From NCBI GenBank assembly GCA_045837725.1, contig JBEWZL010000209.1, positions 620,001 to 649,273 on the forward strand: DNA of 29,273 bases, read 5' to 3'. The DNA comes from Vermamoeba vermiformis (lineage: Eukaryota). How positions within the stretch are numbered: the stretch's first letter is position 1; each line of letters starts with the position of its first letter. The position numbers and the translations under genes were made by a program. Under the pieces are notes generated by a model. The model made no database searches and was not told the origin of the DNA. It was given only the letters and a program-made list of their open reading frames with translations. Below are positions 1 to 29,273 of this stretch, piece after piece.

Positions 1-21
1 GACAACCAAGTTATAACTTAC

Positions 22-4480: not shown

Positions 4481-4517
4481 TACGATAGAACGATGTTTTA
4501 GTCTAGTCACTCTTCGA

Positions 4518-5795: not shown

Positions 5796-6524
5796 TTATT
5801 CGTAGACTGAATACTCTTCGCCACTACATGTTATTTCATTCTTAAATTTGTAAGGCAAATTGTCATTTTTTGGTGATTTAACGGTGGTTTTGACGACCTT
5901 GGAAGTCTTCGTCTTGGATCGAGCAGTGGATTTACGTTTGGGGGCCGTTACGCTGCGCCTAATTTTGGTTAGTGCTACGCGCCCCTTGTTCTTCTTCCAG
6001 CTTGATCCAATATCGTAATCGTCATTGGCCTGTTCGTCGTTAGAAGTATTTGCGAATTCGATTTCAACGTCCTCTTCCTCTTCCGAATCGTCTGCATCTC
6101 TTATATTCAGCTTTGGCTTTGAGTAGTACTGACGAGTGACTTTTTGGCCTGGCGACAAGAAAGCGTTGTGATCCATCATAAAGACTATCGACTTGCGTTG
6201 TCCTTCTTCAAGGGCTAAATTCTCGTGAAGTAGCTCTCTCGATCTAAAGAAAATCATATCACCTGGTTTCAGTTCAAATCGTAGTTTAAGTTGTCGAAAA
6301 GCCAGATCTCCACCAGTATATTCTCCGAACGGAATAACGCAACAAAGCCCTTCAATTTCATCCTTATAACGCATAGCGTTAGTATAATTTTAATTTTTTA
6401 ACCACGTATTGCTTACCTTGCAGTCGTGGTGAGGAGTACTCGTGTGAAAATTGAGCGCGCACATCAAATAACTCTTGCCTAGAAGACGCTTTCTAGGCGT
6501 TTTGATGCCTCGGTAAGCATTATA
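5796..6524 (-). pseudogene. TET/JBP-family 2OG-Fe(II) dioxygenase, 5'-truncated (C-terminal ~225 aa)
   Basis: Exon 6524-6417 (..LMCALNFHTSTPHHDCK), 54-nt intron 6416-6363, exon 6362-5796 (DEIEGLCCVIPFGEYTGGDLAFRQLKLRFELKPGDMIFFRSRELLHEN..GQRKSIVF). HxD, distal H and RxS are intact. No credible upstream exon is visible beyond the 6524/6525 junction. Confidence 0.85.
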
Positions 6525-6594
6525 CTATATAGGAGGCTACTACAATTTAGGGTTATGCGTTCTACGGGCTGATAACACCCTTGCCTCTTATCTA

Positions 6595-6855
6595 GGGCGT
6601 AGTTTTGAGGACTACGCCCCTTCAAACCAGAACAGGGGTGTAGTCCTCGAAACTACACCCTTGCGAACCAGAACAGGGGCGTAGTCCTCAAAACTACGCC
6701 CTTGCAAACCAGAACAGGGGTGTAGTCCTCAAAACTACGCCCTTGCAAACCAGAACAGGGGTGTAGTCCTCGAAACTACACCCTTGCGAACCAGAACAAG
6801 GGCGTAGTCCTCTAAACTACGCCCTCACAAGCAAGAACAGGGTTGTAAACTACAT
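6595..6855. repeat. 41-bp tandem hairpin array (GGGYGTAGT-cctcraa-ACTACRCCC), five direct units plus one inverted unit
   Basis: Units start at 6627, 6668, 6709, 6750, 6791. The unit at 6595-6619 has the reverse-complement loop TTTGAGG. Confidence 0.95.
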
Positions 6856-7797
6856 GTGCAAAATATACATCTTATTTACCATGCTAATTCGCATGCTAAT
6901 TAGCATGCTATTTCTAAATGTGTGGGAAGCCAAACCAGAAAAGTGCAATGCGCCAGGGTTATGTTTGAGCTTACTCAGTAATGACTGCGTCAGTAACGGC
7001 AATGGCCACACCGCAGAATAAACAAAACAATTATTACATCAAAGCGGATGCGTAGAAAAGAGCGGGCAAGGCGAGGAGAGGGCACGAACGCGAAATTAAT
7101 GGTGGTGGTTTGTTGGCTCGTTGTTTAGTTTGTCTGATCTGAACCATTTTTGGCAATTACAAATTTTGTCAGCCCGTGACAGTCGACCAGGGCTTTCTTG
7201 TTTGCCGATGTGCTTGGCTACGTTCACTAGCTTGGCTGGCTAAGTGCGGCAACGAGGTGCCATAAAGCATGTTGTGCACGAAATTAACCAGGGTTTTGAG
7301 TAGCGGATCGGATCTGCTTGCTAATTATTTTTAACGTGCTCTTTAGCTTTAACAGCAACTAAGCATTGTGTCCCGCGACTAACGTTGTCTCAGATAATTA
7401 GGCTTTGACTCAACGGAGGCGGTTCCAGGTTCACCTCAGATCAACATTGTAGTTTTGCCATTATTATATAACATGACGAGATTAAGTATCAAACGCCGAA
7501 CAATAATCAGCAAGATGCAATGCGGAAACGTGGGCTTCAAAAAATAATTGGATCAAGCCGACAACTGGATGTACAATTAATTAGTATCGCTTAGTAAAAT
7601 GCCCGATACTGTTGTATCTCTCGAGACCATAAATAAAAAAAACACGCGTCAAATCTAAATTAGTACTGACGAGACGTCAATGATCACGTGCTGTTGTTTA
7701 TTTTTAGACGTCCGTAAAAAATTAATTTTTCAATCTCAACCCAACATAAACACGACGCCACACGTCGTATTTATTATTAATTACACGAGTACTGCCC

Positions 7798-8046
7798 AAA
7801 GCTCTACTCGTGTAAACCGAAGATTCAGCGCTTCCCAAAGACGTCGCTGTAATCTGAAAATCCGATCAAATCCAAAAGATTTGCTTTAATCGCAGCTATT
7901 ATATCTAAAGTATAATAATAAAGCTCTACTTTGTCGTGCAACGCAAAGGTTTCAGCGCTTCCCAAAGACGTCGCTGAATCTAAAAATCCGGGCAAATCCA
8001 AAAGATTTGCTTTAATCGCATTAATATTATATCTATAATATAATAT
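7798..8046 (+). repeat. ~122-bp tandem duplication upstream of gene A1
   Basis: AAAGCTCTACT..TTCAGCGCTTCCCAAAGACGTCGCTG..CAAATCCAAAAGATTTGCTTTAATCGCA occurs twice (from 7798 and 7920). Confidence 0.9.
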
Positions 8047-8134
8047 TGAAATTATTACGTACTCTCCACTGGCCTACGTGAATTAATTTGGCTGTCATTT
8101 TCTCGATTCAGATTTGATCGACGGAAATTTACAA

Positions 8135-10407
8135 ATGGTACGAATTTATGTGATTAAATAAATGATAATACACGTATTAATTTATTACTGTTATTTTTCA
8201 GGATCAACCGCTTCGTGTCAAAGTAGCAAGCTACATCCAGTTTTTAATGTTCGCGTGCAACCGAACACCAGCTCCAAACATCGATTCCTACGTGTCGAAC
8301 GTCTGCAAGATGATTGGGCAGTATATCAGCTCTTTCAATCGGCGTGAAGACTTTATCTTCTTCTTCTGCGTGTTCTGGTTTCACCAGATGTTGCCAGAAC
8401 ACGAAGACGGCAAGACGTACTTTCCGGCATGGTACAAGTCGTACCGCGATAAAATTACAGCCGCACTTGGAATCGACATGGGCTCTCCGGCATGGAAAGA
8501 ATTCGCCAACTTCTTTCACGGGTTTTACTCAATGTTCACGTGTGCCTTGAACATCGCCCAGTCAACCGTCAACAAGATTATCGTGCACCGGCCAGGCACC
8601 AACTATACTCAGGCTCTGCACACTGAGTACTACAAAATATGGATTGCCTTGCGTTATCATTATACTTACTGGCGTTCTGAGACCGAGCTGCGGTCACTGC
8701 TTGGCTCCGTAGACGTTTCTTTGCTTCAATGTGATTACGACCAACCATTTTTTACGAAGTTCACGTCATTCACGGTAGCACCTCTTCATTTGCCTTCAAT
8801 AGCACCGCACAGCACCGTTAGCGAGACCCCGCAACAGTACCAAAATACGCCGATGGGCTTCGTTTCTGGTTGCACAGGCTTGGGCTACGCAGCGTTTCAT
8901 CGTGCCGACTTTCTCAACACGAGCGCGCAAGCAATCTTTGTTGGGGCGAAGAGAAAGCTTGCCCAGACAGAAGAGACGACCCCGCAGCCCAAAAAACCAC
9001 GCTTAGACGTTCCTAACCCGGTGCAAGAAGATGAAAATTCACTCGTTATTTTAGAACCAGAACCACCAAGTCCAAGTCCAAGTCCAAGACCCAATTCTAC
9101 AGTGGAGCTGGTAAGCTTACTAGAGCCTAGGCCCTGATCGGCGTGTAAAAGGTCGAAGGAGTAACTAATTTGTTTCCTTGCAGGACTCTCCTCAAATTCG
9201 CGTGTCATATTCTTCGTCATCGTCTCCGTCGTCGCCAGCGTCATCATCATTTATATCCGTAGCCGAATCTGAAGGAATTTCTTTCTTGCCGGATGACTTT
9301 CAAGCAAAGTGTTCAACACTACAGGTTACGCACGACTTGTTTACCTCACTGAAGAAAAATCCAAAGGCTCTTTCCCGATATGAAAGGGTTAAATTAACGG
9401 GTTTTTCTTGTTCCTTGGCCGATCTCAACATCTTCGAATCTGCTCATTGTTGGGCTTTGGTGCTTGAAGATATGACGCTTGCTGAGCAAACTGAATGCGA
9501 ATCCATTAAACGGTATGAATTATTTATTACTTCAATATTAGGGTCTAATCTTGTCGCAGGTTGCCGCAAAAGTGTTTGGTCGTAACACCCGATCTTGACA
9601 CAAATCTCGTCCAACCTCTGTTAGCTGCCTGCCCGGACTTGGGAGCGATCCAGTTGCTAGGGATTAAGAGTTCTACTACACGGCTTGGTCTGGCGCTGTA
9701 TAACATGGCCCGCCTTCAATTTCTTCATCTAGATTCGGATGGCCACGTCACCAACTTTTACAATGCTTTCAAAGCGAAGACCTGCACTCAAGTATTGCAG
9801 GCAATATTCAAACGCGCTCCGAACCTCATTGGCTTGTTCATTCCGCTGCCAGACGAATCTGTCAGATTGGATTTGTCGTCCGTCAAATTCCCTCAGTCCC
9901 TGCATCTATTGGGTCTCAAGAGTCACGGGAGTAATTCAACAGTCGATATTCACGCTGTTGAAAACTTGAAAGTGCAGCATCTGGCACTTGTGAATCTGCG
10001 CATCGAGACACCAGAATGGTCTTACTCCGAGGATTCGGATGATTTATATGAAGACCTAGAACCCAAATATCCCTGGCTATATATTGGTGGTGACAACGAC
10101 AGATCTACCATGGAAATATTTTCGGACATAGTGCTGAATAGACCGTAAGTTGCTATTATTTTTCAACTTTTTATTTATTTAAACTAATAATTTGATTAAC
10201 AGATTTGGTTTTGAAGCACCTTCGTTGGTTCCGCAAACTCTGCTACCACTCCGGATGTTCTACGCAATTTTTTATCAAAGTGTGGCTGAAACTTACTCCC
10301 CGCAAAGCTCTCGCGCTACAGTAATTGAGCTATTTCGAACACTGCGGCCTTCGTATGAAGGATTTTACCCGGCAGTACCCTGTCGAACGTCGAACGAAAG
10401 AAGTTAA
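8135..10407 (+). CDS. Gene A1: unknown protein with helical N-terminus, NLS-like basic motifs, Pro/Ser linker and LRR-like C-terminal part
   Basis: Exons 8135-8137, 8202-9110, 9184-9512, 9560-10144, 10203-10407 join in frame through GT-AG introns. KRKL, KKPRL; LxxLxL repeats (LQFLHL, LIGLFI, LHLLGL, VQHLAL). The 3' end is uncertain because coding-like sequence continues in shifted frames to ~10616. Confidence 0.7.
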
Positions 10408-10675
10408 CTACAACCTATCACTTGCCGGCGATAATATTTTTATGGTGTTACCTCCGGACACCGCAGAGAGTGCGCGCCAAAAGTTCCTGTCGTTCAGAGG
10501 GTATTGAGCCCGCCAAATTTAACGCTCAAGCACGTGATACGCTGTGTTGGACCAATAAAATTACGGCGCCAGAGTTAAAAACGAATCTGCCCTCCTTGCT
10601 GCCTTGTCTATCTTGACACTGACTGAGTCACGTAACGCGCATTACTTCTACTACTCCTCCTATTCTCACGTTAAC

Positions 10676-13080
10676 ATGGTAAGTTTCCTGTCAAAGTAAA
10701 ATTGCACTGCTAGAGCGAATCGAATAATAGGTTTATTACTACTTAATAATGTATATTTCTAGTCGCAAAAAGATTACTTGGGCTTGGTGCGAAGCTACCA
10801 CTCTGAACGTTCTGGAGAATCTGCAAGCAACCACAACCAACCGGAGAGTGAACAGGAGTTTACTGAGGTAAGATTCGTTGCGGATTAACTACAAGCTTTT
10901 GTGGTTTAATATTTTTACATCCGTATCCAATTTAACATGTTTTTTTCCAGACTAGTACTTCTGTGCGAACGAACCCGGCACGCAAAGCCAAGGACGAATT
11001 CAATGCGTGGAGTTATTATGGTACGTCCTGAAACGATTTTTTCATCTTTTTTTGGATGCGGATTTAACATCCAATTTTAGAGTCGGATGAAGAAGTGTCC
11101 AGCAACATCTCGGCTCTTGAAGGTTTTGCTGAGCCTTCAGACAAGAAAGCAGCCAACACTAAATACTGGCTGAGCAACCCTGCCATGGAAGCGCACGATT
11201 GGAATGATCTTCACCAAACGGATGTCCCATCTGACGGGGATCTTGACTTCGTAGAAAACGACGAACAGCCTCTGCCCAACGATGAAGAGTTCATGGAGTT
11301 GGACAAGAGTGATGAGCAGGATGCTTACATGGACGAACCATCGTCCAGTGGTGATAGCGATTCCAGCTCCGACTCCAAGGCCAATGCTAGCAGCGACGTC
11401 GATTCCAGCTCTGAGGATGGTGACGACTCCAAGGCCAATGCTAACGGCAACGTCGATTCCAGTTCAAGGGATGGCGATGACTCGAAGGTTAATGCTGGTG
11501 GTGACGGCGATTCCAACTCCAAGGATGGTGACGACTCGAAGGCCAATGCTAGCAGCGACGTCGATTCCAGCTCTGAGGATGGTGACGACTCCAAGGCCAA
11601 TGCTAGCAGCGACGTCGATTCCAGCTCTGAGGATGGCGACGATTCCGGGGCCAATGCTAATGACGGAGACAATTCCAGCTCCAAGCGTGACGACTCCAGG
11701 GTCAATGCCAATGATCTTGATGGTCAACCAAATCTGCCTAAGCAAGCTCGTATGCCGCGTGGTGATGCTTCACGGCAGCGCGTTAATTCTACAACTGTAG
11801 CGCTGTCATCCCCTACCAGCCAAAAGACTAAAAGAGTTCGATTTAAATTGCCCACGATCGTGCGCACAAAAGCTCGAGACCATAAGCGCTCTTCTAAAAT
11901 ACTTCAGAAAGGTAAGTAGTCACTGCAGCAATTAATATAGATGGCTTATAATTTATTTCTAGATCGAGAAGCCTTGCGACTGAAGCGAGCGGCAAAGGCG
12001 AAGAAGCAATCTCATTACTCCGCAGGTCAGTATCAAAGTGAAATCAATTATAATTTACTAATTGTCTTTTAGAGACCAAGTGTAGCAACCTCAAGCAATT
12101 ATTGAAGGCGCAAGGTTCTCAAGAGGCGAAGGACAAGATAATTCACAAATATATCCGAGCGCTTTGTCAGAACTTGAATGTTCTAACCGAGTTCGGAGTG
12201 AATTGCTTGATAAAGGGCGAGGGCAAGTTCATTGGCTTTGGCTACAAAAAGAAGAAGTACAAACTCAAGCTTGCAAGCGGGGCAAAATCCTCCAAGCAAG
12301 GTGAAGCTGCTTGTCGGGAGGGTTCTCGTGCCACGACAACTTTGAGAACTGAAAAAGGTATTAGTTTTAAGTCAAATACCATTCTTTGACTAACAAACCG
12401 TGATAGAGCCGTCTGCTCGGGTTCGTAGTCTTCTTAACGAATGCCGTTTTCTTCGGGAGACCTACGAAAGGTTCTCGAACTTAAACAATGTCGGCTTACC
12501 TGCGGTTGCAACGACCCCAGGGCACGAGGTGCTGAGTTACTTCGTTTCTGGAGCGTTGGACCTAGAGTTCGATGAGAACGTGGACAAGGTCTCCAGTTCC
12601 ATCGATGCCCAACTTCAACTGGTCTCAAAACTTGAGCTTCGCGTTGTTGAGCTGACCGTCCTGATCAAGCTCAAGACCTTTTACATCGGTGCTCTCGTGG
12701 ATAAGCTGTCAGCTTTCTTTCGCGACAGATCGCACGCCGAAAATACGCAAGCCATGCAAGTGGAAGTGAACGACAATATCTTCAAAGTTTTGCAACACTG
12801 TGCACCTTCAAGTTTGGTTGCTGCCATGCCGGATGATCCGAACATTAAGAAGTTGGCTAGCAACGCATCCAAGTCGAACATGCAACGCAAGTTTTTCCGC
12901 CAATGGAAATTTCGGTTAAGCCGATTTTTTAGCATATGCTCAATTGAGCGAAAATTGCTTTTTACGGACTTGTCTCTCACGCAGATTGTGCGAACATTTC
13001 CGGACCCAAATTCGACAATGATTTTGTTCGATTACATTCGGACACATTCGGAAGAATATCCAGATTGGCTAACTCCTTAA
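10676..13080 (+). CDS. Gene A2: core gene 1, acidic repeat region plus conserved helical C-terminal domain; paralog of B3
   Basis: Seven exons from ATG|GTAAGT at 10676 splice in frame. C-terminus FFRQWKFRLSRFFSICSIERKLLFTDLSLTQIVRTF aligns with B3 AFRRWKSDLTKFFQLCSLKPVLLFSSLSYYFLVRSF. Confidence 0.8.
11356..11710 (+). repeat. Coding tandem repeat, 54 bp / 18 aa (DSSSEDGDDSKANASSDV), ~6 copies
   Basis: Seen in ORF 11095-11919 and in the DNA (gattccagctctgaggatggtgacgactccaaggccaatgct). Confidence 0.95.
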
Positions 13081-13086
13081 TACTAG

Positions 13087-16000
13087 CTTCGAGACATCAC
13101 CAACTCTTACCAGCAGGCAACTACCGACAATCGAAGTACGTAACTGCCTTCATGTTTACCGTAGCTAATTGTTTGTGAAAGGTTCTTCTATTTCACCTTT
13201 CAAAGTCAATTTTGATCTTCGCGAGTTCAACATGTCCGTCTGTGAAGGCAATTACGACTCAGACAAAGAAAATGCAATGGATTTTGATTTTTACAGTAAC
13301 AGTGAGTATTAATTATACATATAAATAATTCCTAACTGGTTGACGTGGTGCAGAAATGGACGATGCCGAGCTGGTTGAGGATCCGGAGTTGAAGCGACTC
13401 GAAGAAGAAGACGTTTGCACGCTTACTGGTAAGTTACAAAAGATGATATGGCGCCACTAATTATACTTCAGAGAATTGGCTAGCTGCCACCGAGTCCACT
13501 GGTCTATGTTATTTGGCACAACTTCGTGCGGCGCAGGGAACCCTTGATAGTATGTGCTGAGTCTTTTTACGAGTAGTGTTTAATACTCATTAACAGCACC
13601 TGCGTCAAAGCGTTCGACTTCGAGTAGAGTTTCTGCTCATCTGTCGCCCAACGTAGCAGAATCTCCTTCGAAGTGGCTTCGCAGCTCCCCAGTGAGCCCA
13701 AGTCAGCCACCAAGGGTGATGCCTCCCCGACGTTCAAGTCCGTTGCAAGTGCTCAATGCCACGCCTGAGCGACGATCACCAGCTCATGCGACACCAAAGC
13801 CCTCACAGCCGATTCGCACAAGCCCTATTCACTCTCCTTGTTTGTCTCCTGTGGGTTCGCCAAGCAACGACGAGGAAGACGTTGTGGGTTCACCAAATGC
13901 TTCGTGGTGCAATCACCGATCTGACGACGAAGAGTTCTCCGAAGCCTTTGTGGCCTCGCCAAGCGATGACGAAGAACTCTCTGAGAGCTTTGTGGGTTCG
14001 CCAAGCAACGACGAGGAAGACGTTGTGGGTTCACCAAATGCTTCGTGGTGCAATCACCGACCTGACGACGAAGAGTTCTCCGATGACTTCTACTCGTTGG
14101 TTAGAGACTGGCTTGCAGACGGCTCGGAGTCGAGCTTACCTGACCTGCTTCGATTCAACAAGTTGACTGATAAGGAGAAATCTGCCTTTTATACTTATGC
14201 AGAGCGGTAAGAGCAAATTTAAATTCCAGCCTGTTCGCTGACGTTTTGTTTACCAGTGATTTTATTGAGCACAGTTCGGGGCAGAAAGCTTACAAGGCTG
14301 AGTACCTCGATCGAATGCGCGCGGCACTTGAGACTGGCAGAGCTAAAGTTAGCGTCTACACTCAGCATTTGCTGCGAAACGCAAAGATCGTTAGTAGCGA
14401 CGCTGACTTTGGTTCTGATTTCGCGCGGGACATCGCTTGGATGACTTCCCAAGCCTATATTGGTCCAAGCTATCACCTCACGGCTAAGCACGATATGCAA
14501 ATCACCAGCAGCATCGACAACGATTTCATCGGCTTCGTGTTTGAAGATATTACCTTCATTAAGGTTCTAGTTGACCTTGTCTATTGCCCTGATTTTAGCC
14601 CGTCTGCAAAGCTCGACGATTGCAAGATGAAGTATGCTGGCAAATCTTTACACACCATTCCAAATATCTCGCTTGGGTAAGCGATACTTTTTGTTTGTTT
14701 CAAGCGCTGAATTATATTCTATTATTAGGTGCATTAATGAGAGTCTCTCGCTATACGTTACCTTTCCGTTCTGGGACGAGGATTGGGCGACTGTCATTCA
14801 CAGCTTTTTCAAAAGTTGTATCTATGAAGGTAACTTGGTTCGCTAAATCGATTACGACTTCTAATGTTAAATTCAGGGGTGCGCAACTCCAAACAAAACC
14901 GAACAGCACCGTTAGCGCCCTCATACGAGGTCGGTCTTAGGGTAACGCTACCCGGCATGACATTTTCGGCTAAATGTAGCACAATTAATAGTATTGGAAA
15001 AGCAATCAACGACTTCACGGAGCAAAACAAAAAGTAAGGTGCTAAACTACTAAATCCTATTAACGCTCTAATACAGGATGCAACCAGTGTTTGTAGTTCA
15101 ATATTTCGGACAAAAGGAGCCTGTTAGCCGGGCACGCGTCAAGAAAATCTACAAAGAGTTGGGCAAGTCGTTCGATATGGATATGGTGTACAATCATCGC
15201 CACGGGTCTAAAGCTTGGTTCTTCTTTGACATTGCCGAGGACTTTGCGTAAGTATAACGTTACTTTGTAACCGTATCTGTATTAATACCTTTTGTAGGTG
15301 CGGGGATCTCGAGAATGTAACGCTGTTTTTCACCCGAGAAGTCACACACTTGCTGAAAGACCGACAGCGATCCCCATTTGCGAGCTTGATGGTGCGAAAC
15401 TCGACTAAAACTGTACGAAAGCGTTCTGATGATCAATCAAAAGACTACAAAAGTTACACGTAAGTGCAGCGCGGGCATTGATTACGATTACTAATCTTCT
15501 CTTAAAGTTGCACAGAATATCCTAACTATGGGATTGGCTCGTTTGCAAGTCTAACGCTTCATTGGAAAAATCAGTACTCTCTTCTGCACAAAATTAAAGT
15601 TTACGACAAGTCGAGCGAAGTCTTCCGCCACAACTCGCCGTTCGCTGATGTCTGGCATGCAGCTCTCTCATTTCCTTTTCAGAGTGTTAAATCCTTGTTC
15701 TCTAGTGCGCCGGCTCTTTCAAAGAGACTGGAAAATCGCTTGAAAAGTGAAGAGGAGCAGGTTAGCGCTCGCACTCATTACAACCGTGCGGAGGCTTTGT
15801 ATTCTCAAGTATTGCCAGACAAAGCATACGGACCGCGAGTGGAGCTTACACTGCAAAATGCAACTTTGGAGGAGCTTACACGGGCCTATGACGCGCTAGC
15901 GGAGTTTGCAGAGGCTGTTGTATGCCTTTTCAACGTGACAAAGGCAATATATCAATGCGGTTTGGCCCCGAAAGAGATACTGCGGTGTTGCCCGATCCAA

Positions 16001-18135: not shown

Positions 18136-18243
18136 TTCCTGTCACATTAAACATCATGTAGAGGGCTTGTATTGACTTCATTTAAGTGTAAAATAAAGAT
18201 TTCATGTGCCAATACAAAGCGAGTGTTTTTTTAAGTAATCAAA

Positions 18244-18301
18244 TTTATGGCCAGCCATAAAGCTAAACAGACTGAGGATACAAATTATGGCCAGCCATAA
18301 A
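18244..18301. repeat. Two copies of the palindrome TTTATGGCC(G>A)GCCATAAA
   Basis: 18244-18261 and 18284-18301; same motif as in the 20.2 kb and 25.2 kb arrays. Confidence 0.9.
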
Positions 18302-18433
18302 AAAAAAGGAAACTGGATGAACTCTACCTTTAAGGTGAGGCAGACAAGTTCTTGAGACAATTTTACCCAAAATAAAAGAGCAAGATGTCAAAGTACAAGT
18401 CACATTTACCAAAAGACGTTTTTTATTGAAAAT

Positions 18434-19611
18434 TTACAAGGAGTAAATGTCTAAATTAATGAAAGAATACATTTGTTTAATTTGAGCAATTTTTTTGGCA
18501 CCGTTGCCTTGAAGAACCATTTTGATGAGAACAGTGACAGATACAGGAGAGGTCGGGTCATTGATGTCAAAATTAGAAGAGCAATCAAGAAGCAATAATT
18601 TCTTGCCATTTTTAATCATATCTTGCAACAATCTAAGGCATGCAGGCTTCGCAGTTTCTAAAACCCATAGATAAGGCAAAATGAAGAACAAGTCATGTGC
18701 CATGGAAGGAGTGATAATGATGGCGCTCGTTTCCCCCTATTATGACAATTAGATAAGAATTATTGAATGCAAATAGTAAACTTACCAATTGCCAGCCTAA
18801 AAGTTCTTTTGACGGTTCCTTGCGGTGAATTTTTTCTTGCAACTGCAACATTGTTGTGTTGATTGTAGGATTGCTTTTGAATAGTTTGAAGCATTCATAA
18901 ATGCCTTGAACTGTAATTGAGTTCCTGGATGAATTGATAACCTACTTGAATGGTTAATATGTAAAGGCAAGTGAAACAAAGGGCACGTACCGGAATATGG
19001 GAAATAGCTGGTTGAAAATGAGCTTGCAAGGTGTAGAATACTTTGGTAGTATCTCTAATTACAATCTTGGTGTTAGAAGACAATAAAATGCCAGAAAAAA
19101 CAACTTACGTAATATCAATAACCTCTAAGTCCAAATGTCGTTGTCTTAACAAGGAGATTGTTTTGGTGTCGCTGACCTTTGCGCAAAAAATTGAAGGGGG
19201 TTGGGCTGGTAGTGAAGGAGGCTGAAAGTTTGTTGTTGCCTTGCAGTCATCGCTCTCAAGGGCCGTTGCAGGACAACCATTTGGAGAGAAGCGCTCAAGT
19301 ACTTCAGGTTCGGAGCTTGTGTCTGCAAAACTAATGAGCTTGTGAAGGGCAAAAGAAGTAAGGGAACAAACCATCTTCGGATTGAATCTTCTGTTTGCCC
19401 ATATTGTGCACTCTTTGTACTGTAAAAACTATCAGTAAATTATAAAAATAATTATGATATAACTTACTTTCTTCTGCCGTTGGTTTGTAGCCAGCAGGTT
19501 TTCCTATTTTGCGTGCCAGATGTCAGTCAGTCACTTGTCACGAAAAAAAAGAAATGATAATAGTTACAACTTACCAGCATAAAGAAGCATTATTTTATCA
19601 GCAAGGTTCAT
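18434..19611 (-). CDS. Gene B1: DUF6939-like (NADAR-related) protein, ~285 aa, seven exons
   Basis: Spliced product ..LEVIDITDTTKVFYTLQAHF..HIPV..ITVQGIYECFKLF..LLGWQLG..FILPYLWVLE..LLLLDCSSNFDINDPTSPVSVTVLIK follows the pattern I recall for DUF6939 (IIDVTS..GIPVP..SVEGIWQGLKVF..YxPxYxWVLE..VLLDYxTNxD..PLSHA). Confidence 0.7.
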
Positions 19612-19899
19612 TTATTCAGTGATTTCTAAATTTTCTACAAAATAATTAAATAATTGGATGCGGATTTAAAGCACCAGTGAATTTGGGTAGCTGGCTTATG
19701 TACATAAATTAATAATGTAAAAATGGTTTACTTACTTTAAGTCTTTCAGGTAGAATGGCCTTCGTGGTTGTGGTACCTCGTGGAAAAAATTTTGATCTAG
19801 ACCAGAGTTTTTTTTTTGTTTTGCTTTATTTTAACTTGTAAACCCAAGTAATACCTCTTGTGGCATTTAAAAAACCAAGCCCTCACCACCGGAATTGCA

Positions 19900-22800
19900 A
19901 TGGAAGACGTGGTAAAAGCGCGCGAGATCGTACAACAAAATCTGCCAGAATTGCCCAGTGAAGTAAGTTAAAATACTAAATTTACCTGGCAAATAATTAT
20001 ATATTATACCTTGCAACCAATAAACTGGTTTGCCTTGGTTTTAACTGCTTTTTTTTTTTTTAATCCGCATCCGGATCTTTTTTTTTAAATTAAATTCTTG
20101 CCTGGCTTCAATTAGTACACCAATTATATTATTATAATTAGAATTTTAAAATTTTAGCTTAAATTAAACCAAACTGCTGGACAAAGGAACTTACGCACCT
20201 TACATTTTATGGCCGGCCATAAAATTTTTACCAGGACTAAGTCCAAAAATGCCTCAAAGGCGCAGGTTCGAATCCGGGTGGGGGCAATTTTTTTTATTTT
20301 CTTTATGGCCGGCCATAGAGTCCTGCTATATTGCCTCAAAGGTGCAGGTTCGAATCCAGGTGCGGGCAATTGTTTTTATTTTTCTTTATGGCTGGCCATA
20401 GAATTTCTACTGCACTGGAGCAGGTTTGAATCCAGGTGCGGGCAGTTTTTTTATTTTTCCTTTATGGCCGGCCATAGAGTCCTGCTATATGCCTCAAAGG
20501 CGCAGGTTCGAATCCGGGTGCGGGCAATTATTTTTATTTTCTTTATGGCCGGCCATAGAATTTTTTTATTGCAGAATTACCCTGTCTTCTTTTTTTTCTT
20601 ATGTTGGCCACCTATCCAATTATTTCTAGTATAAATCAACACATAGTTGTCTTTTTTTTGGACTTTCTGCATCGAATCTGATCCGATTCAGATGCAGTGT
20701 AGGTCATCAAACACAGTGCTAATTATATTTTTACAGACATTTGCCTTGGATACCTCACAGTACGAGGTTGTTACAGAGTTTGACACGTTAACTGACAGGC
20801 CTTGTGCAAATCCCGGATGCGCACAAACCGAGTGCTACCTGTAAGCAGCACTCCATGAAATTAACTTGTTAATTTTTTCTGCAGCTTGCCACATTTGAAT
20901 GTTTCCTTTTGCAAGCAACAGCTTCAACAGGGAGCAACAATGGTTACGTTGTCGGAGCCCTTGTACTCCAAAGGTAGCTCAATTAAAGGACGAGGGTAAG
21001 ATGACAGAAATATACATATAAGTAGATGATTATAATTCTAACAAACCTCCTTTGTTGCAGCTTTAATATTCGTGAGTTGTCCATGGATCATGTCAAGCGA
21101 CTCATGTTAATCTGCGTGCCATGGTACTCAAGCCAAGGAACTCCAACAGTCGTGCCAATACGACATAAAGAAACAAAGGAGTATGGCTATGCTGTTTGCA
21201 TTGGTATGTACTATATTTGTCTGAAGACGTCGTACTTTTTTTAATTCAATTTGCCCCAAGGACAACATCGTGCTCTTGTGGGTCATTACTTTATGCAATG
21301 GAAGTTGATTGATACAATGCAAGTGAATATTCTTTTGCCATCAAGTATGCAGGTGAGTAAAGAATTGAATGGTGTAAAAAACATGACTAAACTTCTTTTA
21401 GGACTTGTACAACAGAGGATTGGACATGCAGAAGAATGACACGAAACACTTTTTGGATCTACATGCAATGGATAAAGTGCTTCTAATCCAACAGTTATGC
21501 GACTCAATGGCTAAAATGGATGGAACCACTTACCCAGAGGCTACCCAAGCAAAGCAGAACGAGTATGTCAAAAGAGCAAATGAGGCACTCGAAAACCAGA
21601 AGCTTGGTATGCAATATATATCTTTTAATTATTTGCAAAGTACTCATTCTTTTTTTGGTACAGGTGATTGCGTGCAGTTGTTCAAATTTTTACCACGACA
21701 GTTATTCTCAGATCCAAGTGTTGTTCTGACAAGTTATCTCACACTGGCCAATGTTTTCACTGCGTAAGCTAACCACCAATTGATATTTGGCATTCTAAAG
21801 TATTGTTTTTTAGGAAAAAGCAACCATTTACTGTGAAGAACTTACTTGGAGTTGCTATTAAGAATATAGCAGAGAAAGACAAGGTGGAGCTGCTGACACG
21901 ACTAATTGAACGCACCAAAAACTACCAAAAATGGTGTATGTTGATTTTATTCCCAGATTGTGTTAAACTAATGAATATTACTTGTTAGGGCTTGATAGGC
22001 GTGAAGAAGCTCTGAAGCACTTTGCTACAACTGGCAGGAAGAAAAGTTATCTCCCTGATCAAATGAAGTGTAAGTAGTTAATTGATTAGTATTCTTACTA
22101 ATAATGACTTTTCCTCAGCCGTGCCAGAAATGCCTTCATGGAGGGAGGAGATAGTTATATGGCGTGGCAAAATGCTGCTAAAGGAGAGGTGCGTGCACAT
22201 CTTGAATCTTCCTCTTGAAGAATGGGATTCGGATTTGCACAAGACAGCAGAGAAGTTTTTTGTTGACAACCTTCAACAAGGGCTTTTGGCTAGTGAAGGC
22301 CAATACTTATATGAATCAGAATTCTCCCTGCAGCTGGGCAAGATTCCTAATTTTGCACAAGCAGTGAAGAAGTGGATTGTGCCAAGATACATGTACTACG
22401 AGCCTTCTCAAGTTTCTCAGGTGCTGGCTGAAGTTAAGAAGGGTGTTATAATCACTCTTTCTTCGTACAACCTCACTCCTGATGCCTTTACCCTGCTCTA
22501 TGGTGATCGTAACAAATTGCCAACAATCGGTAAGCTTATCTGACTTATTGTTTTGCCAGTGGTTAGTATTAATGTTAATTTCTTAGCTGTTCTACCTCCT
22601 GAAGTAGCACGTAGTGATAAGATTCGTCCATATTTCACAGCTCTTTGGATAGATGAGAATTGCGCCATTGGCATTCGTAATTTTGATTCACTGTGCAAGA
22701 CATCAGTACAGCTCAATGCATTTTTTGAGTGTGTTGCTTGGGGAGTGACAGATGGCAAACTGCTTCACAAAGAAACCAAAAAGACTGCCATCATAAATGG

Positions 22801-25118
22801 AATCCTATTCGCTGGTAAATTTTAAATCAAACTTGTATATTTTCACCTGCTTTAACTTTTTACCTGTAGTTACTTCATGCAACCAACGTAGCCAGGTTGA
22901 TAATGTGATTCTGTTTGGATTAGTTTCAGTTGGGGAGCTGAAAAACTTGCTAACAAAGAGCATTACAATTCATCATTTTGGAGATGACTGGAGCAGAGAG
23001 TTAGCTAATGTTCCCAAATCTGGCTTCGACTATGGCTTCTATGACTCACTCTGGATGGCTCATCACAAGCTTAAAGTGGAGTGGCGCCAAAAGGCAATGC
23101 AGAAAGATGTTAAGGATGTTCCCACTGAGCCCCAGTTATTTTGGGGTACATTAGATGAATGTGGGGAGCTTTTGCGAATCCAAAATGAGTACCGGTAAGA
23201 TAATTGTTGTTGAAATAACTTGCTGCATGTGTAACTTGTTTATTTAGGATCAAACCGCAATTCCCTGAAAAATTCAGTATTATCTCGGGGTCTGATTGTT
23301 ATTGGATGTCAGAAAAGCAAGTAAGGTTTTCACAATCAAATGCGCTGAAACATGCCGTTGGATTGGCAACAGGTATTTAAAAGAAAAGAAAGGGCTTTCT
23401 TCAATGTTTCTCACCAATTTATTTACAGCAAGATTACAAACCAAGTTCGATCCGCGTTACTATAGAATTCGAACAAGCAATGCATATCAGTTTTGGCATC
23501 CCTTCCCTGACTGCATTGATGTTGAAACCAATACTTTGTTTGAGATGTATGGTGAAAACTGCGCTGGAGTTCGTTGCATTGCACCTTATTTCTACAGTGA
23601 TTGGCAGATCCCTTACTCAGTAAGCTTGCTTACATGCAACACAGTGTATTCTAATCACTTGCATAGCTGTGCACTCGGTTTTTTTACCTGAAAAGCAATT
23701 TTTCTGGCTCTATCTATTGGGTTTTATGTCCTGTGTTCACGTTGGAGGAAGGATTTCATGACTTGCCAACGTGTAAGGTTTTTGTGCACTTTTTGATTGA
23801 TGCTAACCTTTTGCTAGGGGATATAAAAGAGGAACCAGACAAGTCATTGACATTTATCCGTCAAGATCCGGGTCAGACCCTCTTAATTCCGTTCAACTAT
23901 GCCTATCGGTACTGGGTTTTGCCTGATTACAATTTGGATACTCAAATTGAAATGGAATTGCATCCTCGCACTGCAACATTGTTGGAGTATTTCCATGCTG
24001 AATGGTACTGGGGCTACTCTTCTTGGGTGGGAACCAAGTTAAGTTATCAAGATTCGTTGTTGTTCCTTCTAAAGGGATCAGCAATTGATTTTGAAGGTGA
24101 TGTGGTTTCTGAGAACATTAGAACGAGTCTCCTGCCAAAGCTGATCAAGTTTGCCCTGCGAAACCCTCCTAAAGAGTTTGGAGACTTTGTTCATCAAACT
24201 GAATGCACTCGGTGTCACCGTTTAATCTCTTTGGCCTTGTTCGGAACATCGCTCAAGACAATTCATTGTTTCATGTGCGCTTTCATTGATCAAAGTGAAG
24301 ACCACGAAGGTGCTGAAAATACTGCATATGCCATGAGTGTTCTACATGGAGTCCATCCACTGCATGTTATCTTGGGAATAATACGGTATTTGTTTTTTCA
24401 ATCTAGTTAACTTTTCTAATTGTTTATTAAATACAGAGCTATTGCAAGACTTATTGAAGCTCTTCCCGACTGGAATGATGAAGAAGCAAATGCAGCTTTG
24501 AAAAAACGGCGGCAAGCTATCGAAGATATTTTGAGAAGCAATGAAGGTGATAGGCAGAATGAAGAGCGCAAGCCAATTGAGCCAAAAATTCCAAAACTGC
24601 CTTTCATTGAGCACATTCCAGGCACCAGATACAACTTGTTCATGATCCAATTTCCAGGCAACACAACAGTTGTGCCAGCTTGCGACGATGTTCCGCTTAT
24701 ATTTTCTGAGGTACTTCCTGAGCCAGTGCCTCAAACGGCAAAACAGAGCAACACCAACAAAACCACTGCATCCAAGCAGAATGTTGATCCAAAGTTGACA
24801 GAGAAGGATTCTGGTGGTCAATCTTCTAATGCAGATTCAGATGGTCAATCTTCTGATGCGGATTCAGATGAGAAATCAAGCAAAGGGACTCCAAAAACCA
24901 AACAGAAACAAACAAAATCCCCTGCAAAAAAGAATGTTGTTGTTTCAGTTGAGTCAGATTCGGAGGAGACTGATGGAGGCAAAGAAGCAGAAAAGTCTCC
25001 TCAAAAGGGCTCTGGTAAGAAGACGCCAGAAAAAGGCAAAAAGAGAAAAAATCAGGAATCGGCAGAAGAAGGAGAGCCAAAATCAAAGAAAAGAAGGACG
25101 GATCAGCCTGCCAAGTAA
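19900..25118 (+). CDS. Gene B2: ~1,200-aa, 17-exon protein; ParB/Srx-like domain + degenerate JmjC (KDM6-like) + C4 Zn finger + basic NLS tail
   Basis: Exon 1 19900-19962, 774-nt intron, then short GT-AG introns all in frame. ParB-like: NIRELSMDHVKRL..PTVV..YAVCIGQHR..DKVLLIQQL. JmjC-like: NTLF..AGV..PYFYSDWQIP..GSIYWVLCP..FIRQDPGQTLLIPFNYAY. Zn: CTRC..LF..IHCFMCA. Confidence 0.75.
20205..20559 (+). repeat. ~80-bp unit array in intron 1 of B2: five TTTATGGCCGGCCATA palindromes alternating with four Pol III B-box (GGTTCGAATCC) motifs
   Basis: Palindromes at 20205, 20302, 20385, 20461, 20542; B-boxes at 20265, 20347, 20423, 20505, each followed by a T-run. Confidence 0.95.
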
Positions 25119-25183
25119 TTTTGCGTAAATAAATTGGGCTGATTATATTAAAAAGATTGCAGTGTATCAAGTACAAAGAAAAG

Positions 25184-25450
25184 TTTATGGCTGGCCATAA
25201 AGAAAAATAAAAGTTTTGCAGCCACCAGGATTCGAACCTGCTCCTTGATATTAGCCAGATTTTATGGCCGGCCATAAAATTTTTACCAGGACAAAGTCTA
25301 AAAATGCCTCAAAGGCGCAGGTTCGAATCCGGGTGCGGGCAAAATTTTTTATTTTCTTTACGGCCGGCCATAAAATTTCTACTGCACTGGAGCAGGTTCG
25401 AATCCGGGTGCGGGCAATTATTTTTCTTTTTCTTTATGGCTGGCCATAAA
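25184..25450. repeat. Second palindrome/B-box array between B2 and B3: four palindromes, three B-boxes (first inverted)
   Basis: Palindromes at 25184, 25260, 25357, 25433; GGATTCGAACC at 25228, GGTTCGAATCC at 25320 and 25395. 25259-25450 nearly duplicates units of the 20.2 kb array. Confidence 0.95.
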
Positions 25451-25669
25451 CATTTGCTACTAGCTATGAGCTTCATATGCAATTGTTGTAAGCCTAATAG
25501 ATAGTTTCTGACTGTTATTTGTTACTGTTTGTACGTGGTGAGTTTTGACCGTCAAAACAGTTTGCCGACCAAATTTTGCACGTGAATGCACACCCCTTAT
25601 TGTGAATCTTTGTTTACTGTATTGTCAACTAAGAAATACAACTATTTTAAATTAAAACAAACCTTGGAA

Positions 25670-27766
25670 ATGGACAGCAACCCCATTGGCAGTGCTTCTG
25701 AGCGCTTATCCGACGAAGAAATGGATATTGAAGAGGTATGTAGTAATTTTAGCAGTTTTTTTGATAATGATTGTGTGCCTGAATTAGAGCAAATTTTCTA
25801 CTGCAACTTAAGCACTCAAATTGTCTTCGAAGCTGCATTTATTTTTTTTTTGTACTCGCATCTGAAAACTAAGCTAAAGCATTGGACTTCCAATTACATA
25901 TTATCCCTTTATAAAGCAATTTACAAGAGCAGCAAATTTGATATTCTATTGCAATTGGATATGATGAAAGTAACCGCACCTACAAGCATGAAGGAGGTGC
26001 TAAAATCAAAGTCAAACTGGTCGAACCACTTCTTAATCTTTTTTGCTTGCTTATGTTATAGTAAATCCAAAGAGAAAAATCTTTGGGAAACAGCTAACCC
26101 TATTTTCCTAAAATTCTTGAAGAAAAATTGCAACACTTTGTACCCAATGTACAAAGGCATAAAGAGTGAGGTAGATATCTTGTCATCAATTATTGCAATT
26201 GTTCATCCTGTGATAAAGTCCGTGCCTGTTGCAGAAGAAATTGTTTCAGGAAAGAGAAAGAGAGATGATAGTGAAAATGAAGAAGAACCGTCAAAAAAAC
26301 AAAAGACTGATGGAGAAAATGACTCACAGCGTACTAGGAGGAATGTAGGCAAAAAAGTGCCTAAAGATATTCAAGAGACTCTGCGCAGTTATAGCGAGCG
26401 ATGGAAATCTGATCAGATCCCTAATGAGGAATCCAGCAAAATGAGTGAGGAAGAGGCAGGTGAGTATCTGAGTGAGGTTGAGGAGGGAGATGAATTGGAA
26501 AGTGAGGAAGAGCAGGAGAACCAGGATCATGATTCAGAAATGGGAGGTGACAACAGCCACCTGACTGCAAGGTTAAGCAGAGCACTAGATGAGCAGCAAT
26601 TTGAGAACAGTGTGAAAAAACGAAAGAAGGTACAGTCTTCCCCAAGAGGAGATCTTCAACAATTAAATAAGTTAAAGAATACTTTGAGCAACCTCAACCC
26701 AACAATTGTCAATGCCGGTGAGTATTTGGAAGCTAAACAAGCAACAGAGATGGCAGTTGATTTAATTAGACAGTTCTCACTGTTTGGAGTTTACTTCTCC
26801 GTCAAAAAAGAAAAAGGACATATGCGAGTTACATCTGTAGGTAACATTTACACTGATGAGGAAATATCCCTTAAAGATGAAGAGAAAGCACAAATCAAGC
26901 TGATTAGGCAAACAAAAAAACCATATTCTTCATTGCTTGAAAAAGAAACCCGTAATTCTGAATCCAAGTTACTTTTTGATCTTACGCAAAAGCAGTACCA
27001 AATTCTTTCAACAGCTACTTTTGCCAAAGGAATGTTCAGGTATGTAATGAGAGGAGGAAAGAAGGTAGAAATGTCAGAAGAGTTTGCAAAATGTGCTTTG
27101 CATGTACCTGATGTTGTTCTTGCTTATTTTGAGTCCAAAGAAAAGCGGGCAGAAGTTTTTAAAGATTTGGACCAAAAGAATAAGATTAATGACAAGTTAA
27201 AGTCTATTCTTACAATTTGTGAAACATTTGTGGACCACGAGACTGAAATTATTGCTGCAAAAAAGTTAAGAATGTTTGCAATTGGTTGGTTGATGTCAGC
27301 AAAGAGTGACAAGCTAACCAAGGAGTTAGTAAACAAAGAGACACAGCGATTGCAAACAGAGAATGAAGGTAAAAATGAATTTGAAAAGCTGACAGCAAAT
27401 CAAATTAGCAAGCTAGCAAGAGACAAGGCAGCATCAGAAGTGAATGAAAAACTCGCTCAGTACCTAAAGGACACTGTTGCCAATTTGCAGTTTAAACGGT
27501 CTCTTGCATGCTCTGACCCGTCAACACTTTTGGAGATAAAGCATGTTGAAACAGATGCTAAACAAGCTTTTCGACGGTGGAAGTCAGACTTAACCAAATT
27601 CTTCCAATTGTGCTCGTTAAAACCAGTTTTATTATTCTCCTCTTTATCATATTATTTTCTTGTTCGATCTTTTGTTTCTCCAAAGGCAGTAGATGGTCTA
27701 TTTAGAGTAATGCAAGAAGAAAATTTTGAGCCCAGGTTCTGGTATCAACCAGAGCAATACATCTAG
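25670..27766 (+). CDS. Gene B3: core gene 1, paralog of A2 (~700 aa, NLS-like motifs, acidic tract, helical C-terminal domain)
   Basis: Long ORF 25586-27766, likely ATG at 25670. Shares the F+xWKxxLxxFFxxCS+xxxLLF motif, an upstream (L/E)FGV motif and a terminal WxxP with A2. Confidence 0.85.
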   Translation: MDSNPIGSASERLSDEEMDIEEVCSNFSSFFDNDCVPELEQIFYCNLSTQIVFEAAFIFFLYSHLKTKLKHWTSNYILSLYKAIYKSSKFDILLQLDMMKVTAPTSMKEVLKSKSNWSNHFLIFFACLCYSKSKEKNLWETANPIFLKFLKKNCNTLYPMYKGIKSEVDILSSIIAIVHPVIKSVPVAEEIVSGKRKRDDSENEEEPSKKQKTDGENDSQRTRRNVGKKVPKDIQETLRSYSERWKSDQIPNEESSKMSEEEAGEYLSEVEEGDELESEEEQENQDHDSEMGGDNSHLTARLSRALDEQQFENSVKKRKKVQSSPRGDLQQLNKLKNTLSNLNPTIVNAGEYLEAKQATEMAVDLIRQFSLFGVYFSVKKEKGHMRVTSVGNIYTDEEISLKDEEKAQIKLIRQTKKPYSSLLEKETRNSESKLLFDLTQKQYQILSTATFAKGMFRYVMRGGKKVEMSEEFAKCALHVPDVVLAYFESKEKRAEVFKDLDQKNKINDKLKSILTICETFVDHETEIIAAKKLRMFAIGWLMSAKSDKLTKELVNKETQRLQTENEGKNEFEKLTANQISKLARDKAASEVNEKLAQYLKDTVANLQFKRSLACSDPSTLLEIKHVETDAKQAFRRWKSDLTKFFQLCSLKPVLLFSSLSYYFLVRSFVSPKAVDGLFRVMQEENFEPRFWYQPEQYI

Positions 27767-27818
27767 AGTAATTTTCTAATTTATTTGAAAGATTATAACA
27801 TCTAACTATTATCAACAG

Positions 27819-29273
27819 AAATCCTTGGTGGAGCGGATAATATGCCACAGACTGGCCAAATTACAGCTAACTCCCACTTCTGCCCATAATCGTGCAGTTG
27901 AGGAGCGTCAGCAATGTGACAGGATGAAGAATTTCATCAACAAGGAAATCAGCATTGACACAAACCCAGCTTCAGAGGATTCGCCAAAGCAAACTCAACA
28001 AGACAACGGTAACAGCCTCCTAAACTAATCATAATTGATGTTCTAACATCTTTAATAGCAACCTCAAGTGATTCAGACGAGGAATGTGGCTCATTTGATT
28101 TATTTTCATCAATAGACGATTCAAGTGTGGCCTCTTTGAAGCTGTTTTCATCAGCAGAAGATGATTTTGAAGATTCAGTAAGCACCATCAGATATATTTT
28201 GTAGTTTGAATTAATCATTTGCAAAGGAAAATCTGGAGAAATCATGCTGGTTTGATTTAACAGAGTTGGAAGTTAATGAAGCAAATCTGCTTCGTGCAAT
28301 TTCTAGAATAACAACGTAAGATTCGTTGTAGATTTACAAAACTAATTTTTTTTTAGACAAAACAAGCTGATAAAATCTGTCTATAACCAAGACAAGGGAG
28401 AACATGTTTTAGTGAAGGTAATTAAGGGCTTTGTCAATAGCTTATTGACTTTGGTTACAGACTTCGAAGGATTTGCAGCACATTCATGAAAATCTAGAAT
28501 GGATGTCTAGCTGCAATACCATGCACTCATATGAGCACGATCCATTCAGAAAGCTTGATTACCAAATGGATTTGGATGCAACTGTAATTACCAGCTCAAA
28601 ACTGAACTTTGTGAAAAGCCCAATGCAAATGACAGTGTATCCACGAGCTAGTGATGCAATGGCAAAATCCAAACTGATTATCAATGGCTCTGCATTGCAT
28701 AAGAAGTTAAATGCTTATTTGGGGTAATGTTGATTATGAGTAAGGAAAATTATTAATTTTTTTGAATAATGAAGGGTAGGAGTATACTAGAAGAAATAAT
28801 AATCTAATGCTTTAACTAGAGTTGAGGTTCTCTTTGTAATGCAAGTGTTTGGTGACAAAATGGAGGTTAAGTCATCTTCCGAAGTGCATGCCTATCTGAC
28901 AGAGATTGAGCGCCACTTCATGCTGCCAAATCAGAACAATGATACCAAACACCAATTTTTTCAGGATATTGCAGCAGATATTGGGTAAGCCACTCTGATA
29001 ATTTGCTCTTCAGCTCTAAACAGATGCTAGGGTACATAGAAAGAAGGGAGCAAAAACAGAGTACTTAACAACCTGGAACCCATTGGTTTTGGACATTTTT
29101 CTCAATTCAGAAGCATCACCATTAAAGTCCTTGATGGGTACTGGTTCTACAAGAGCAGGGCGTGTTTCATCATACCCCCAGCTTGGGAGTGCATTGATCA
29201 AAAGTGCAATGGCTCGTTATGCAAACAGAAAAAACAATCTGTTTGAAGTGAAACTTTATTCTAGAGCCAGTCA
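27819..29273 (+). CDS. Gene B4: core gene 2, paralog of A3 (Rep_trans-like), incomplete at the window edge and lacking two exons relative to A3
   Basis: Spliced: ..MDLDATVITSSKLNFVK..VYP..GSALHKKLNAYLG|VEVLFVMQVFGDK..FFQDIAADIG|..SPLKSLM..YPQLG..EVKLYSR. A3 reads IDNDFIGFVFEDITFIK..YCP..GKSLHTIPNISLG..PVFVVQYFGQK..FFFDIAEDFA..SPFASLM..YPNYG..KIKVYDK. Three phase-2 introns sit at matching positions. Confidence 0.8.

Follow-up and report, generated by a model that had tools for sequence, protein, structure and literature searches.

Two neighbouring blocks of Vermamoeba vermiformis DNA with a common left signature and a paralogous two-gene core: possible members of a dispersed family of mobile elements

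To our knowledge, the enzyme types that move eukaryotic DNA transposons are limited in number. Cryptons and Starships carry a tyrosine recombinase, which in Starships is the DUF3435 'captain', encoded by the first gene at the 5′ end. Helitrons start with 5′-TC, finish with 3′-CTRR and display a hairpin just inside the 3′ end. Reported here are two adjacent blocks, A (6522–17789) and B (from 17790), present in a 29,273 nt stretch of Vermamoeba vermiformis DNA (contig JBEWZL010000209.1, positions 620,001–649,273, forward strand), referred to as the window. Its open reading frames are broken by introns of 46–73 nt with GTAAGT-type donors and CTAAC/CTAAT branch sites, as in eukaryotic DNA. A and B are tentatively regarded as diverged members of a dispersed, probably mobile family with unclassified proteins, a reading given a probability of roughly 0.4.

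Two further groups are of use for comparison. Craig (2023, PMC10288648) describes Replitrons as having a Rep-class HUH endonuclease and short direct terminal repeats. Kojima (2025, PMC12730594) places TET/JBP genes of fungi usually in DNA transposons of many lineages, among them KDZ, EnSpm/Plavaka/ESTA, IS3EU, PHISTA and hAT7. Termini quoted there are of the forms CAC..GTG and TAYGG..CCRTA, with CACTA/EnSpm (CMCT) elements showing 5′-CAC..GTG-3′ ends and target duplications of 2–5 bp.

Each block opens with the same short signature, followed within 100 nt by a tandem array:

6522–6554, + strand: left signature of block A, ATACTATATAGG-N12-TTTAGGGTT; its core, CTATATAG, is a palindrome
6595–6842, + strand: array of block A, a 41-nt unit present 6.1 times, beginning 73 nt from the signature start
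17790–17822, + strand: left signature of block B, ATACTATGTAGG-N12-TTTAGGGTT
17844–18078, + strand: array of block B, a 50-nt unit present 4.7 times, beginning 54 nt from the signature start

The 33-nt signature, ATACTATRTAGG-N12-TTTAGGGTT, is exact at both positions and lies on the + strand in both, with its halves 12 nt apart in each copy. The window holds no further match, even with 3 mismatches, and two matches were found in none of 100 shuffles. The copies are separated by 11,268 bp, which is the length of block A from motif to motif. An exactly spaced common left terminus had been proposed in an earlier, sequence-only reading of this DNA, and the two exact matches bear it out; the start coordinate given then, 6521, is off by one base. 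Beyond the 33 nt, the left ends of A and B give no blastn alignment.

The array unit of block A consists of a hairpin (9–10 bp stem, 7-nt loop) and a spacer, with unit 1 flipped. Folded as DNA, this array gives z = −7.1 and none of 200 shuffles was as good. The block B array gives z = −1.7, with 13 of 200 shuffles as good, and shows a weak 6-bp stem only. Hairpin arrays had been proposed inside both termini; an array is found at both, and the hairpin character holds for A and not for B. The heptamer GGGGCGT is present in the units of both arrays, which contain all six of its copies in the window, and the block B units start with it. The chance that both signatures would have an array within 100 nt is estimated by the authors at about 0.001, taking some nine separate arrays in 29 kb.

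The second feature common to the blocks is a pair of genes, here termed the core, for which exon models were made with a simple splice-aware script and the junctions inspected by eye:

10749–13080, + strand: gene A2 (first core gene), about 7 exons with about six introns, start codon uncertain
13232–17547, + strand: gene A3 (second core gene), 13 exons, about 1250 amino acids (aa), intact frame
25664–27766, + strand: gene B4 (first core gene), a single intronless frame of 700 aa
27924–29273, + strand: gene B5 (second core gene), first 7 exons, 323 aa, continuing past the window end

Residues 604–722 of B4 align with 12697–13077 of A2 (28% identity, E = 2.6e-9), with about 230 aa aligned in all, the homology being to the C-terminal ~230 aa of A2, whose last two exons are connected by the intron 12358–12406. 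Residues 189–323 of B5 align with residues 505–651 of A3 (26% identity, E = 5e-8). Two introns of the A3/B5 pair have the same aligned place and phase (B5 187.7/A3 503.7 and B5 242.7/A3 560.7). Around a third candidate, with exons ending LG in phase 2, the alignment lacks significance (75 of 500 shuffles as high). The order of the core genes is the same in A and B, and A2, A3, B4 and B5 show open frames in all models despite 26–29% identity within the pairs. The paralogy and gene order claimed in the sequence-only reading therefore hold; the conserved introns that it also claimed are limited to the second core gene, because B4 is intronless and A2 has about six introns.

Copy number was approached with four sequencing runs, whose contigs or reads were aligned to positions 4001–24000 of the window: X2 (DNA) and X15 (RNA), which carry the same species label, and the water/aquifer metagenomes X3 and X4. 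Depth was summed over contigs aligned at 85% likeness or better, and such summed depth is not a copy number. An error-free X2 contig of 2142 nt with a depth of 150 covers 15671–17812 and ends 22 nt into the block B signature, and at 17826 the summed depth is 6527. If this contig was built from 31-letter words, the repeated sequence would start at about 17783, some 7 nt or less from the signature. Mean X2 depth is 7917 in the bin 6669–7335 and 4459 in the bin 17341–18007. It is moderate (430–920) over the 2–3.5 kb after the arrays, 136–400, about baseline, across 10004–17340, and 246–296 across 20676–24000.

The X2 contig 18333–20184, with a single mismatch, carries gene B1 at a depth of 623, about 4x baseline, and the region of gene A1 is represented only by contigs 1–3% different from the window at depths of 430–840 (3–6x baseline). 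One contig (depth 840) links 6565 to 6655 by ten other letters, and another (depth 535) matches 6953–7292 at about 90% identity with a 170-nt stretch replaced. X3 and X4 give low-depth pieces of A, of B and of a dioxygenase gene to the left of A, and loose ends that precede array units in these runs resemble the linker before the block A array. The signature-plus-array modules therefore form a multi-copy, dispersed family, whose left edge is sharp at the second signature. Several near-identical copies are present of the first 2–3.5 kb of each block, in contrast to the low-copy cores. The sequence-only reading had named the lack of a sharp boundary at the signature in other copies as a sign against itself; in X2 the contig stop at 17812 marks such an edge at the second signature. 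Blocks that are single-copy and syntenic in relatives were named as another such sign; in X2 the modules are multi-copy and the cores low-copy.

The left boundary of block A falls within a gene:

5799–6524, − strand: 3′ part of a 2OG-Fe(II) dioxygenase gene, exons 6524–6417 and 6362–5799

As predicted from its two exons, this is a truncated 2OG-Fe(II) dioxygenase gene, likely of TET/JBP type. Exon 6524–6417 holds the H-H-D motif, encoding ...TPHHDCK, and the 54-nt intron displays a TACTAAC branch site. The frame is open only up to 6524 and is closed by a TAG (6527–6525) inside the signature; thus the N-terminal part is gone, with roughly 60 positions missing from the start of the domain profile. 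The best Pfam match is Tet_JBP at 17.1–17.3 bits, below the cut-off of 34.9, with 2OG-FeII_Oxy_3 matched also. There is no PDB match, and no longer homologue was present among 632 candidates. That block A starts where a TET/JBP gene is cut is supported as to the cut, since the frame ends at 6524 in the signature, and the TET/JBP identity stays below threshold. The truncated gene offers a concrete locus for seeking an empty site.

These boundaries bear on a reading without any movement, in which a host gene cluster was duplicated in tandem long ago and signature and array are a conserved regulatory or structural site. The blocks are adjacent, co-oriented and strongly diverged, as in old tandem duplicates. 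TTTAGGG-type words can be promoter elements, and an insertion signature was not seen in the window. However, the modules are multi-copy: at the second signature, depth climbs from 150 to several thousand over about 40 nt. Other copies have different linkers, segments of 97–100% identity stand at 3–6x baseline, the gene content from signature to core is unrelated between the blocks, and the first signature is where the dioxygenase gene is cut short. A tandem duplication is on these grounds quite improbable.

The right side of block A was compared with its left side and with a similar stretch inside B:

17653–17789, + strand: right end region of block A, with ATCCGGATCTTTTCTTTTA at 17653–17671 and CAATTAGTA at 17782–17790, spanning the A/B junction
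20069–20117, + strand: possible right end of a short unit from 17790, with ATCCGGATCTTTTYTTTTA at 20069–20087 and CAATTAGTA at 20109–20117

Copies of ATCCGGATCTTTTYTTTTA in the window are found only at 17653 and 20069 (two copies in none of 100 shuffles), and + strand copies of CAATTAGTA only at 17782, the A/B junction, and at 20109. Taken whole, the alignment of the last 118 nt of A with 20088–20215 falls short of significance (134 of 1000 shuffles as high); only the two short motifs stand out. Block A begins ATACTAT and ends CAATTAGT. A blastn comparison of its ends (word size 7, 6501–6950 against 17251–17830) gave no terminal inverted repeat (TIR), only the direct signature match and chance words of 7–19 nt, in agreement with the absence of TIRs noted from the sequence. 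A cut-and-paste DDE element with TIRs was set aside, as no inverted repeat joins the ends of A (the right end of B is outside the window). The right end of A (17720–17789) folds no better than shuffles (z = 0.50).

Relatives of the core proteins are few. For B4 one homologue, P0001, with 65% identity was found among 7999 scored candidates. For an A3 exon there were three, P0002–P0004, with 56–76% identity among 124 candidates, and their frames stop at the same intron. A3 is homologous to the database proteins P0002–P0017. A profile of four A3 sequences yields 15 clusters at E ≤ 1e-3 among 1,835,955,588 representatives, two of the 15 being already in the profile. The 15 proteins are frame fragments of 416 aa or less with identities to A3 down to 21–26%, and none has a name or a Pfam family; a cluster look-up of 10 homologues also gave no names. 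The final A3 exon (17292–17547) resembles the C-terminus of P0016. Even in the cautious view, A3-like proteins constitute an unannotated eukaryotic family that is rare, with 15 clusters among the 1.84 billion representatives.

Pfam was searched with 52 queries, namely 42 open reading frame or exon queries from the window, each a single contiguous exon, and 10 database homologues. At E ≤ 0.1 these gave no transposase, integrase, Rep, helicase or reverse transcriptase family. PDB sequence and profile searches gave nothing below E = 0.05. The ESM Atlas showed no usable match for B4, and for P0016 the nearest clusters were unnamed Ascomycota hypothetical proteins at 0.91 and one SPOK2_N at 0.87, which serve as leads only. 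An A3-exon profile had 597 pattern matches in JGI metagenome contigs, none confirmed, and none of 156 pattern matches to an A3 relative was confirmed in IMG/VR. A literature search, supplements excluded, gave no element type matching blocks A and B among the matches listed. The statement made earlier that DDE, HUH/PIF1, reverse transcriptase and tyrosine recombinase motifs are absent agrees with Pfam for the single-exon queries and the 10 homologues. The wider one, that the blocks match no superfamily, stands as far as no known transposase family was detected in single-exon Pfam and PDB searches and two low-confidence models. These negatives are weaker than they appear, because only single exons were searched and the conserved part of A3/B5 (A3 505–651) is split over three or four exons.

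The same splitting counts for a reading in which the blocks belong to an already classified group, with the enzyme unrecognised or outside the window: for example a DDE superfamily without a Pfam model, its core lying in the small exons of A3, or a larger element of which the blocks are cargo. Several DDE superfamilies typically have arrays of subterminal repeats, and the window stops within B5, with the right side of B beyond it. TET/JBP genes are also usually within DNA transposons in fungi, according to Kojima (2025, PMC12730594). Such a placement appears rather unlikely when none of the 52 Pfam queries matches a transposase, integrase, Rep, helicase or reverse transcriptase, PDB gives nothing below E = 0.05, and block A has neither a TIR between its ends nor a 3′ hairpin. 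The termini are not the CAC..GTG or TAYGG..CCRTA forms cited there. Nor are they of the form TC..CTRR.

Block by block, the locus resembles several described systems in layout. Like Cryptons and Starships it is without TIRs, has an oriented and possibly site-directed arrangement with variable genes beside family genes, and shows head-to-tail neighbours with one short oriented site in common. Unlike them, it displays no Phage_integrase or DUF3435-type match in any exon and no recombinase motif, and the family genes lie at the right end of A, reading outwards. For the Crypton-type tyrosine recombinase the negative is that of single exons and low-confidence models. The 11-kb blocks are also far smaller than a typical Starship, and the first genes past the signatures within the window, A1 (no family) and B1 (DUF6939, opposite strand), are not a captain.

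In common with Helitrons and with Replitrons as described by Craig (2023, PMC10288648), the blocks are without TIRs, show palindromic or hairpin sequence close to an end, contain direct repeats that are presumed to be binding sites, and carry genes. A is flanked by one short motif in the same orientation (6522 and 17790), recalling Replitron direct terminal repeats, and this second copy of the 33-nt signature may instead start the next unit. Differences from both groups are the absence of any Rep, HUH or helicase match, an H-R-H of A3 that is not kept in B5, a right end of A without a significant hairpin, and arrays at the left end. A Replitron was rejected on the absence of a Rep match in the 52 Pfam queries. 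A Helitron was rejected as well: the ends are ATAC.../...TTAGT and not TC...CTRR, RepHel (an HUH Rep with a PIF1-like helicase) has no Pfam match, and there is no 3′ hairpin.

With the TET/JBP-associated transposons, as described by Kojima (2025, PMC12730594), the locus shares a TET/JBP-like dioxygenase at a boundary, a repeat-rich region and subterminal repeats recalling EnSpm-type ends. It differs in that the dioxygenase gene is outside block A and cut by it rather than carried, in the lack of a KDZ, CxC or DDE match, and in termini that do not fit the quoted forms. KDZ (Kyakuja-Dileera-Zisupton) was thus rejected for want of a KDZ or CxC Pfam match in any query, and CACTA/EnSpm (CMCT) on the block A ends, ATAC../..TAGT with no inverted repeat, against CAC..GTG.

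The unity of block B is less firm than that of A. The index (CpA+TpG)/(ApC+GpT) is 1.12 in A and shifts inside B from 1.22 to 1.51–1.55; the flank 1–4000 resembles A. Coding GC at third positions (GC3) is 0.50–0.54 for the A genes and 0.37–0.41 for the B genes (6522–17789 against 20560–29273). No signature of repeat-induced point mutation was found in the window. X2 depth falls from 623 to 280 between the contigs 18333–20184 and 20531–21714. Together the repeated right-end motifs, the depth drop and the index shift suggest that 17790–~20117/20200 is a short unit with a right end of its own. The 11-kb block size given in the sequence-only reading is accordingly firm for A alone (11,268 bp), because B exits the window and may be composite.

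Several of these results weigh against joining the blocks into one mobile family. The right-end-like motif recurs at 20069/20109 and the dinucleotide index changes within B, which with the fall in depth suggests that B is composite, its core perhaps belonging to another unit than its terminus. High X2 depth is found only in the first ~0.3–3.5 kb of each block, against roughly baseline depth over the cores; ends and cores may therefore be unconnected. The family would have to be accepted with no empty site, target-site duplication or defined right end found, and the signature is absent from the JGI metagenome contigs and from IMG/VR. Neither core protein shows a catalytic motif or fold in Pfam, in PDB or in two low-confidence models. 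The AlphaFold model of P0016 (17 sequences) has a pLDDT of 52.6 with 102 of 416 residues at 70 or above, and that of B4 (3 sequences) a pLDDT of 43.9; both are mainly helical, and a Foldseek search with the P0016 model gave none of 261 matches at E ≤ 0.001.

Much of this is what the main rival explanation would predict, in which the signature-plus-array modules are independent short high-copy repeats of a few hundred bases to ~3 kb, either a non-autonomous element or a minisatellite-bearing repeat. Two subfamily copies would then lie in one repeat-rich region, and A2-A3/B4-B5 would be a separate low-copy tandem gene family, from the host or another element and not tied to the ends. The very high depth near the arrays only, the 2.3–2.4 kb unit suggested by ATCCGGATCTTTTYTTTTA and CAATTAGTA again at 20069–20117, the composition shift inside B and the different signature-to-core distances (4.2 kb in A, 7.9 kb in B) all count for it. 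The depth pattern is nevertheless undiscriminating, as short derivatives commonly outnumber full-length elements in autonomous/non-autonomous pairs. Both modules stand upstream of, and co-oriented with, a paralogous core, and the right-end motif of A comes after the core and not after A1. The signature is exact while the proteins are 26–29% identical, which fits co-evolution with a recognising protein. On this balance independent repeats are possible, if somewhat unlikely.

In the preferred reading, a dispersed and probably mobile family, each member would open with the 33-nt signature and its palindromic core, followed by an array of 41–50-nt units sharing GGGGCGT, which may act as repeated protein-binding sites. 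The full-length form, represented by A, would continue with a variable gene and then the two family genes, encoding proteins of ~700 aa (A2/B4) and ~1250 aa (A3/B5). These might provide DNA recognition and strand exchange. Shorter units with ends and no core, e.g. 17790–~20200, would have been amplified more. The head-to-tail units, the absence of inverted ends and a signature copy in one orientation at either side of A point to an oriented insertion, site-directed at or beside the signature, as with a site-specific recombinase that integrates next to a resident element; DDE cut-and-paste appears less likely than such integration. Of the cargo-carrying mobile family first proposed, the dispersed repeat with a sharp left edge and two members with the same signature and core are found, and we infer the mobility.

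A stronger form of this reading is that A and its relatives are autonomous, TIR-less, gene-carrying elements of a new superfamily, with an undescribed enzyme in A3/B5 and a DNA-binding partner in A2/B4. This enzyme would bind specifically to the GGGGCGT-type array, and recombination at the signature's palindromic core would place the element beside resident copies in one orientation. This is improbable as matters stand; if true, it would add a new superfamily to the eukaryotic mobile elements. A family with oriented ends, hairpin-type arrays, carried genes and two unmatched proteins would mean either a new mobilising enzyme or an unusual non-autonomous system. Taken cautiously, the signature and arrays are a sharp-edged dispersed repeat that can be used in annotating this genome.

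Between the terminus and the core the blocks carry the following genes:

8135–10407, + strand: gene A1, 5-exon model, 677 aa, no Pfam family
18263–19611, − strand: gene B1, model of about 7 exons
20692–25118, + strand: gene B2/3, tentative model of about 13 exons, about 1300 aa with a lysine/serine-rich tail, no Pfam family

Between signature and core, tblastx of A against B gave nothing at E < 0.1 save acidic low-complexity tracts (11296–11715 and 24714–25103), and B2/3 shows no similarity to block A. The genes between terminus and core therefore differ between the blocks; that they are swappable cargo, as put in the sequence-only reading, would be an interpretation. In Pfam, B1 exon 18440–18736 (− strand) scores 30.1 bits against DUF6939 (E = 4.8e-7), above the cut-off of 27. 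This is the sole Pfam match above cut-off in all 52 queries and the sole curated family within either block. A cupin/JmjC-like character read by eye in B2/3 exon 23667–24383 was unsupported by Pfam or PDB.

Internal repeats occur in or near several of the genes. A 70-nt segment just 5′ of the A1 start codon (7824–8020) is duplicated 127 nt apart, 26 nt being identical and 44 nt at 93%, and is possibly promoter-related. A2 contains an in-frame coding repeat of 54 nt present 5–6 times (11370–11708), giving an Asp/Ser-rich tract; B4 has an acidic tract too, without a DNA repeat. In A3, a 99-nt in-frame duplicate, 97% identical, lies 141 nt apart (13850–14089).

A further array is found within block B, outside its core:

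20204–20559, no strand assigned: T-arm-like array of 76–82-nt units, a tRNA-T-arm-like sequence (GGTTCGAATCC) joined to a ATGGCCGGCCAT palindrome

Related copies are present at 25167–25461 and 18241–18312. The two larger sets (20204–20559 and 25167–25461) bracket B2/3 in direct and inverted register with up to 95% identity, as if B2/3 sat in a nested insertion. ARAGORN called no tRNA in these units or elsewhere in the window, Rfam gave no family for the window, and no telomere repeat array is present in it. The X15 RNA run contributed 74 reads, nearly all partial, on the poly-T/poly-A tracts of 19807–20400 and none on genes, and is uninformative about expression.

The left flank of the window contains two long open reading frames, 368–1861 (− strand) and 2227–3339 (+ strand), which are rich in N-x-S/T and have no Pfam family. 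They are followed by a high-copy repeat region at 4001–5334, where X2 depth is 1775–3605 per bin, with peaks of up to ~10,000 at individual positions. Many X2 contigs link ~4319 to ~5101–5132 with 1–35 differing letters in between; thus 4320–5119 appears to be a variable or inserted core with conserved ends on either side. Within this region, 4508–4859 consists of a tandem repeat of about 67 nt containing GCGCCACAGAG.

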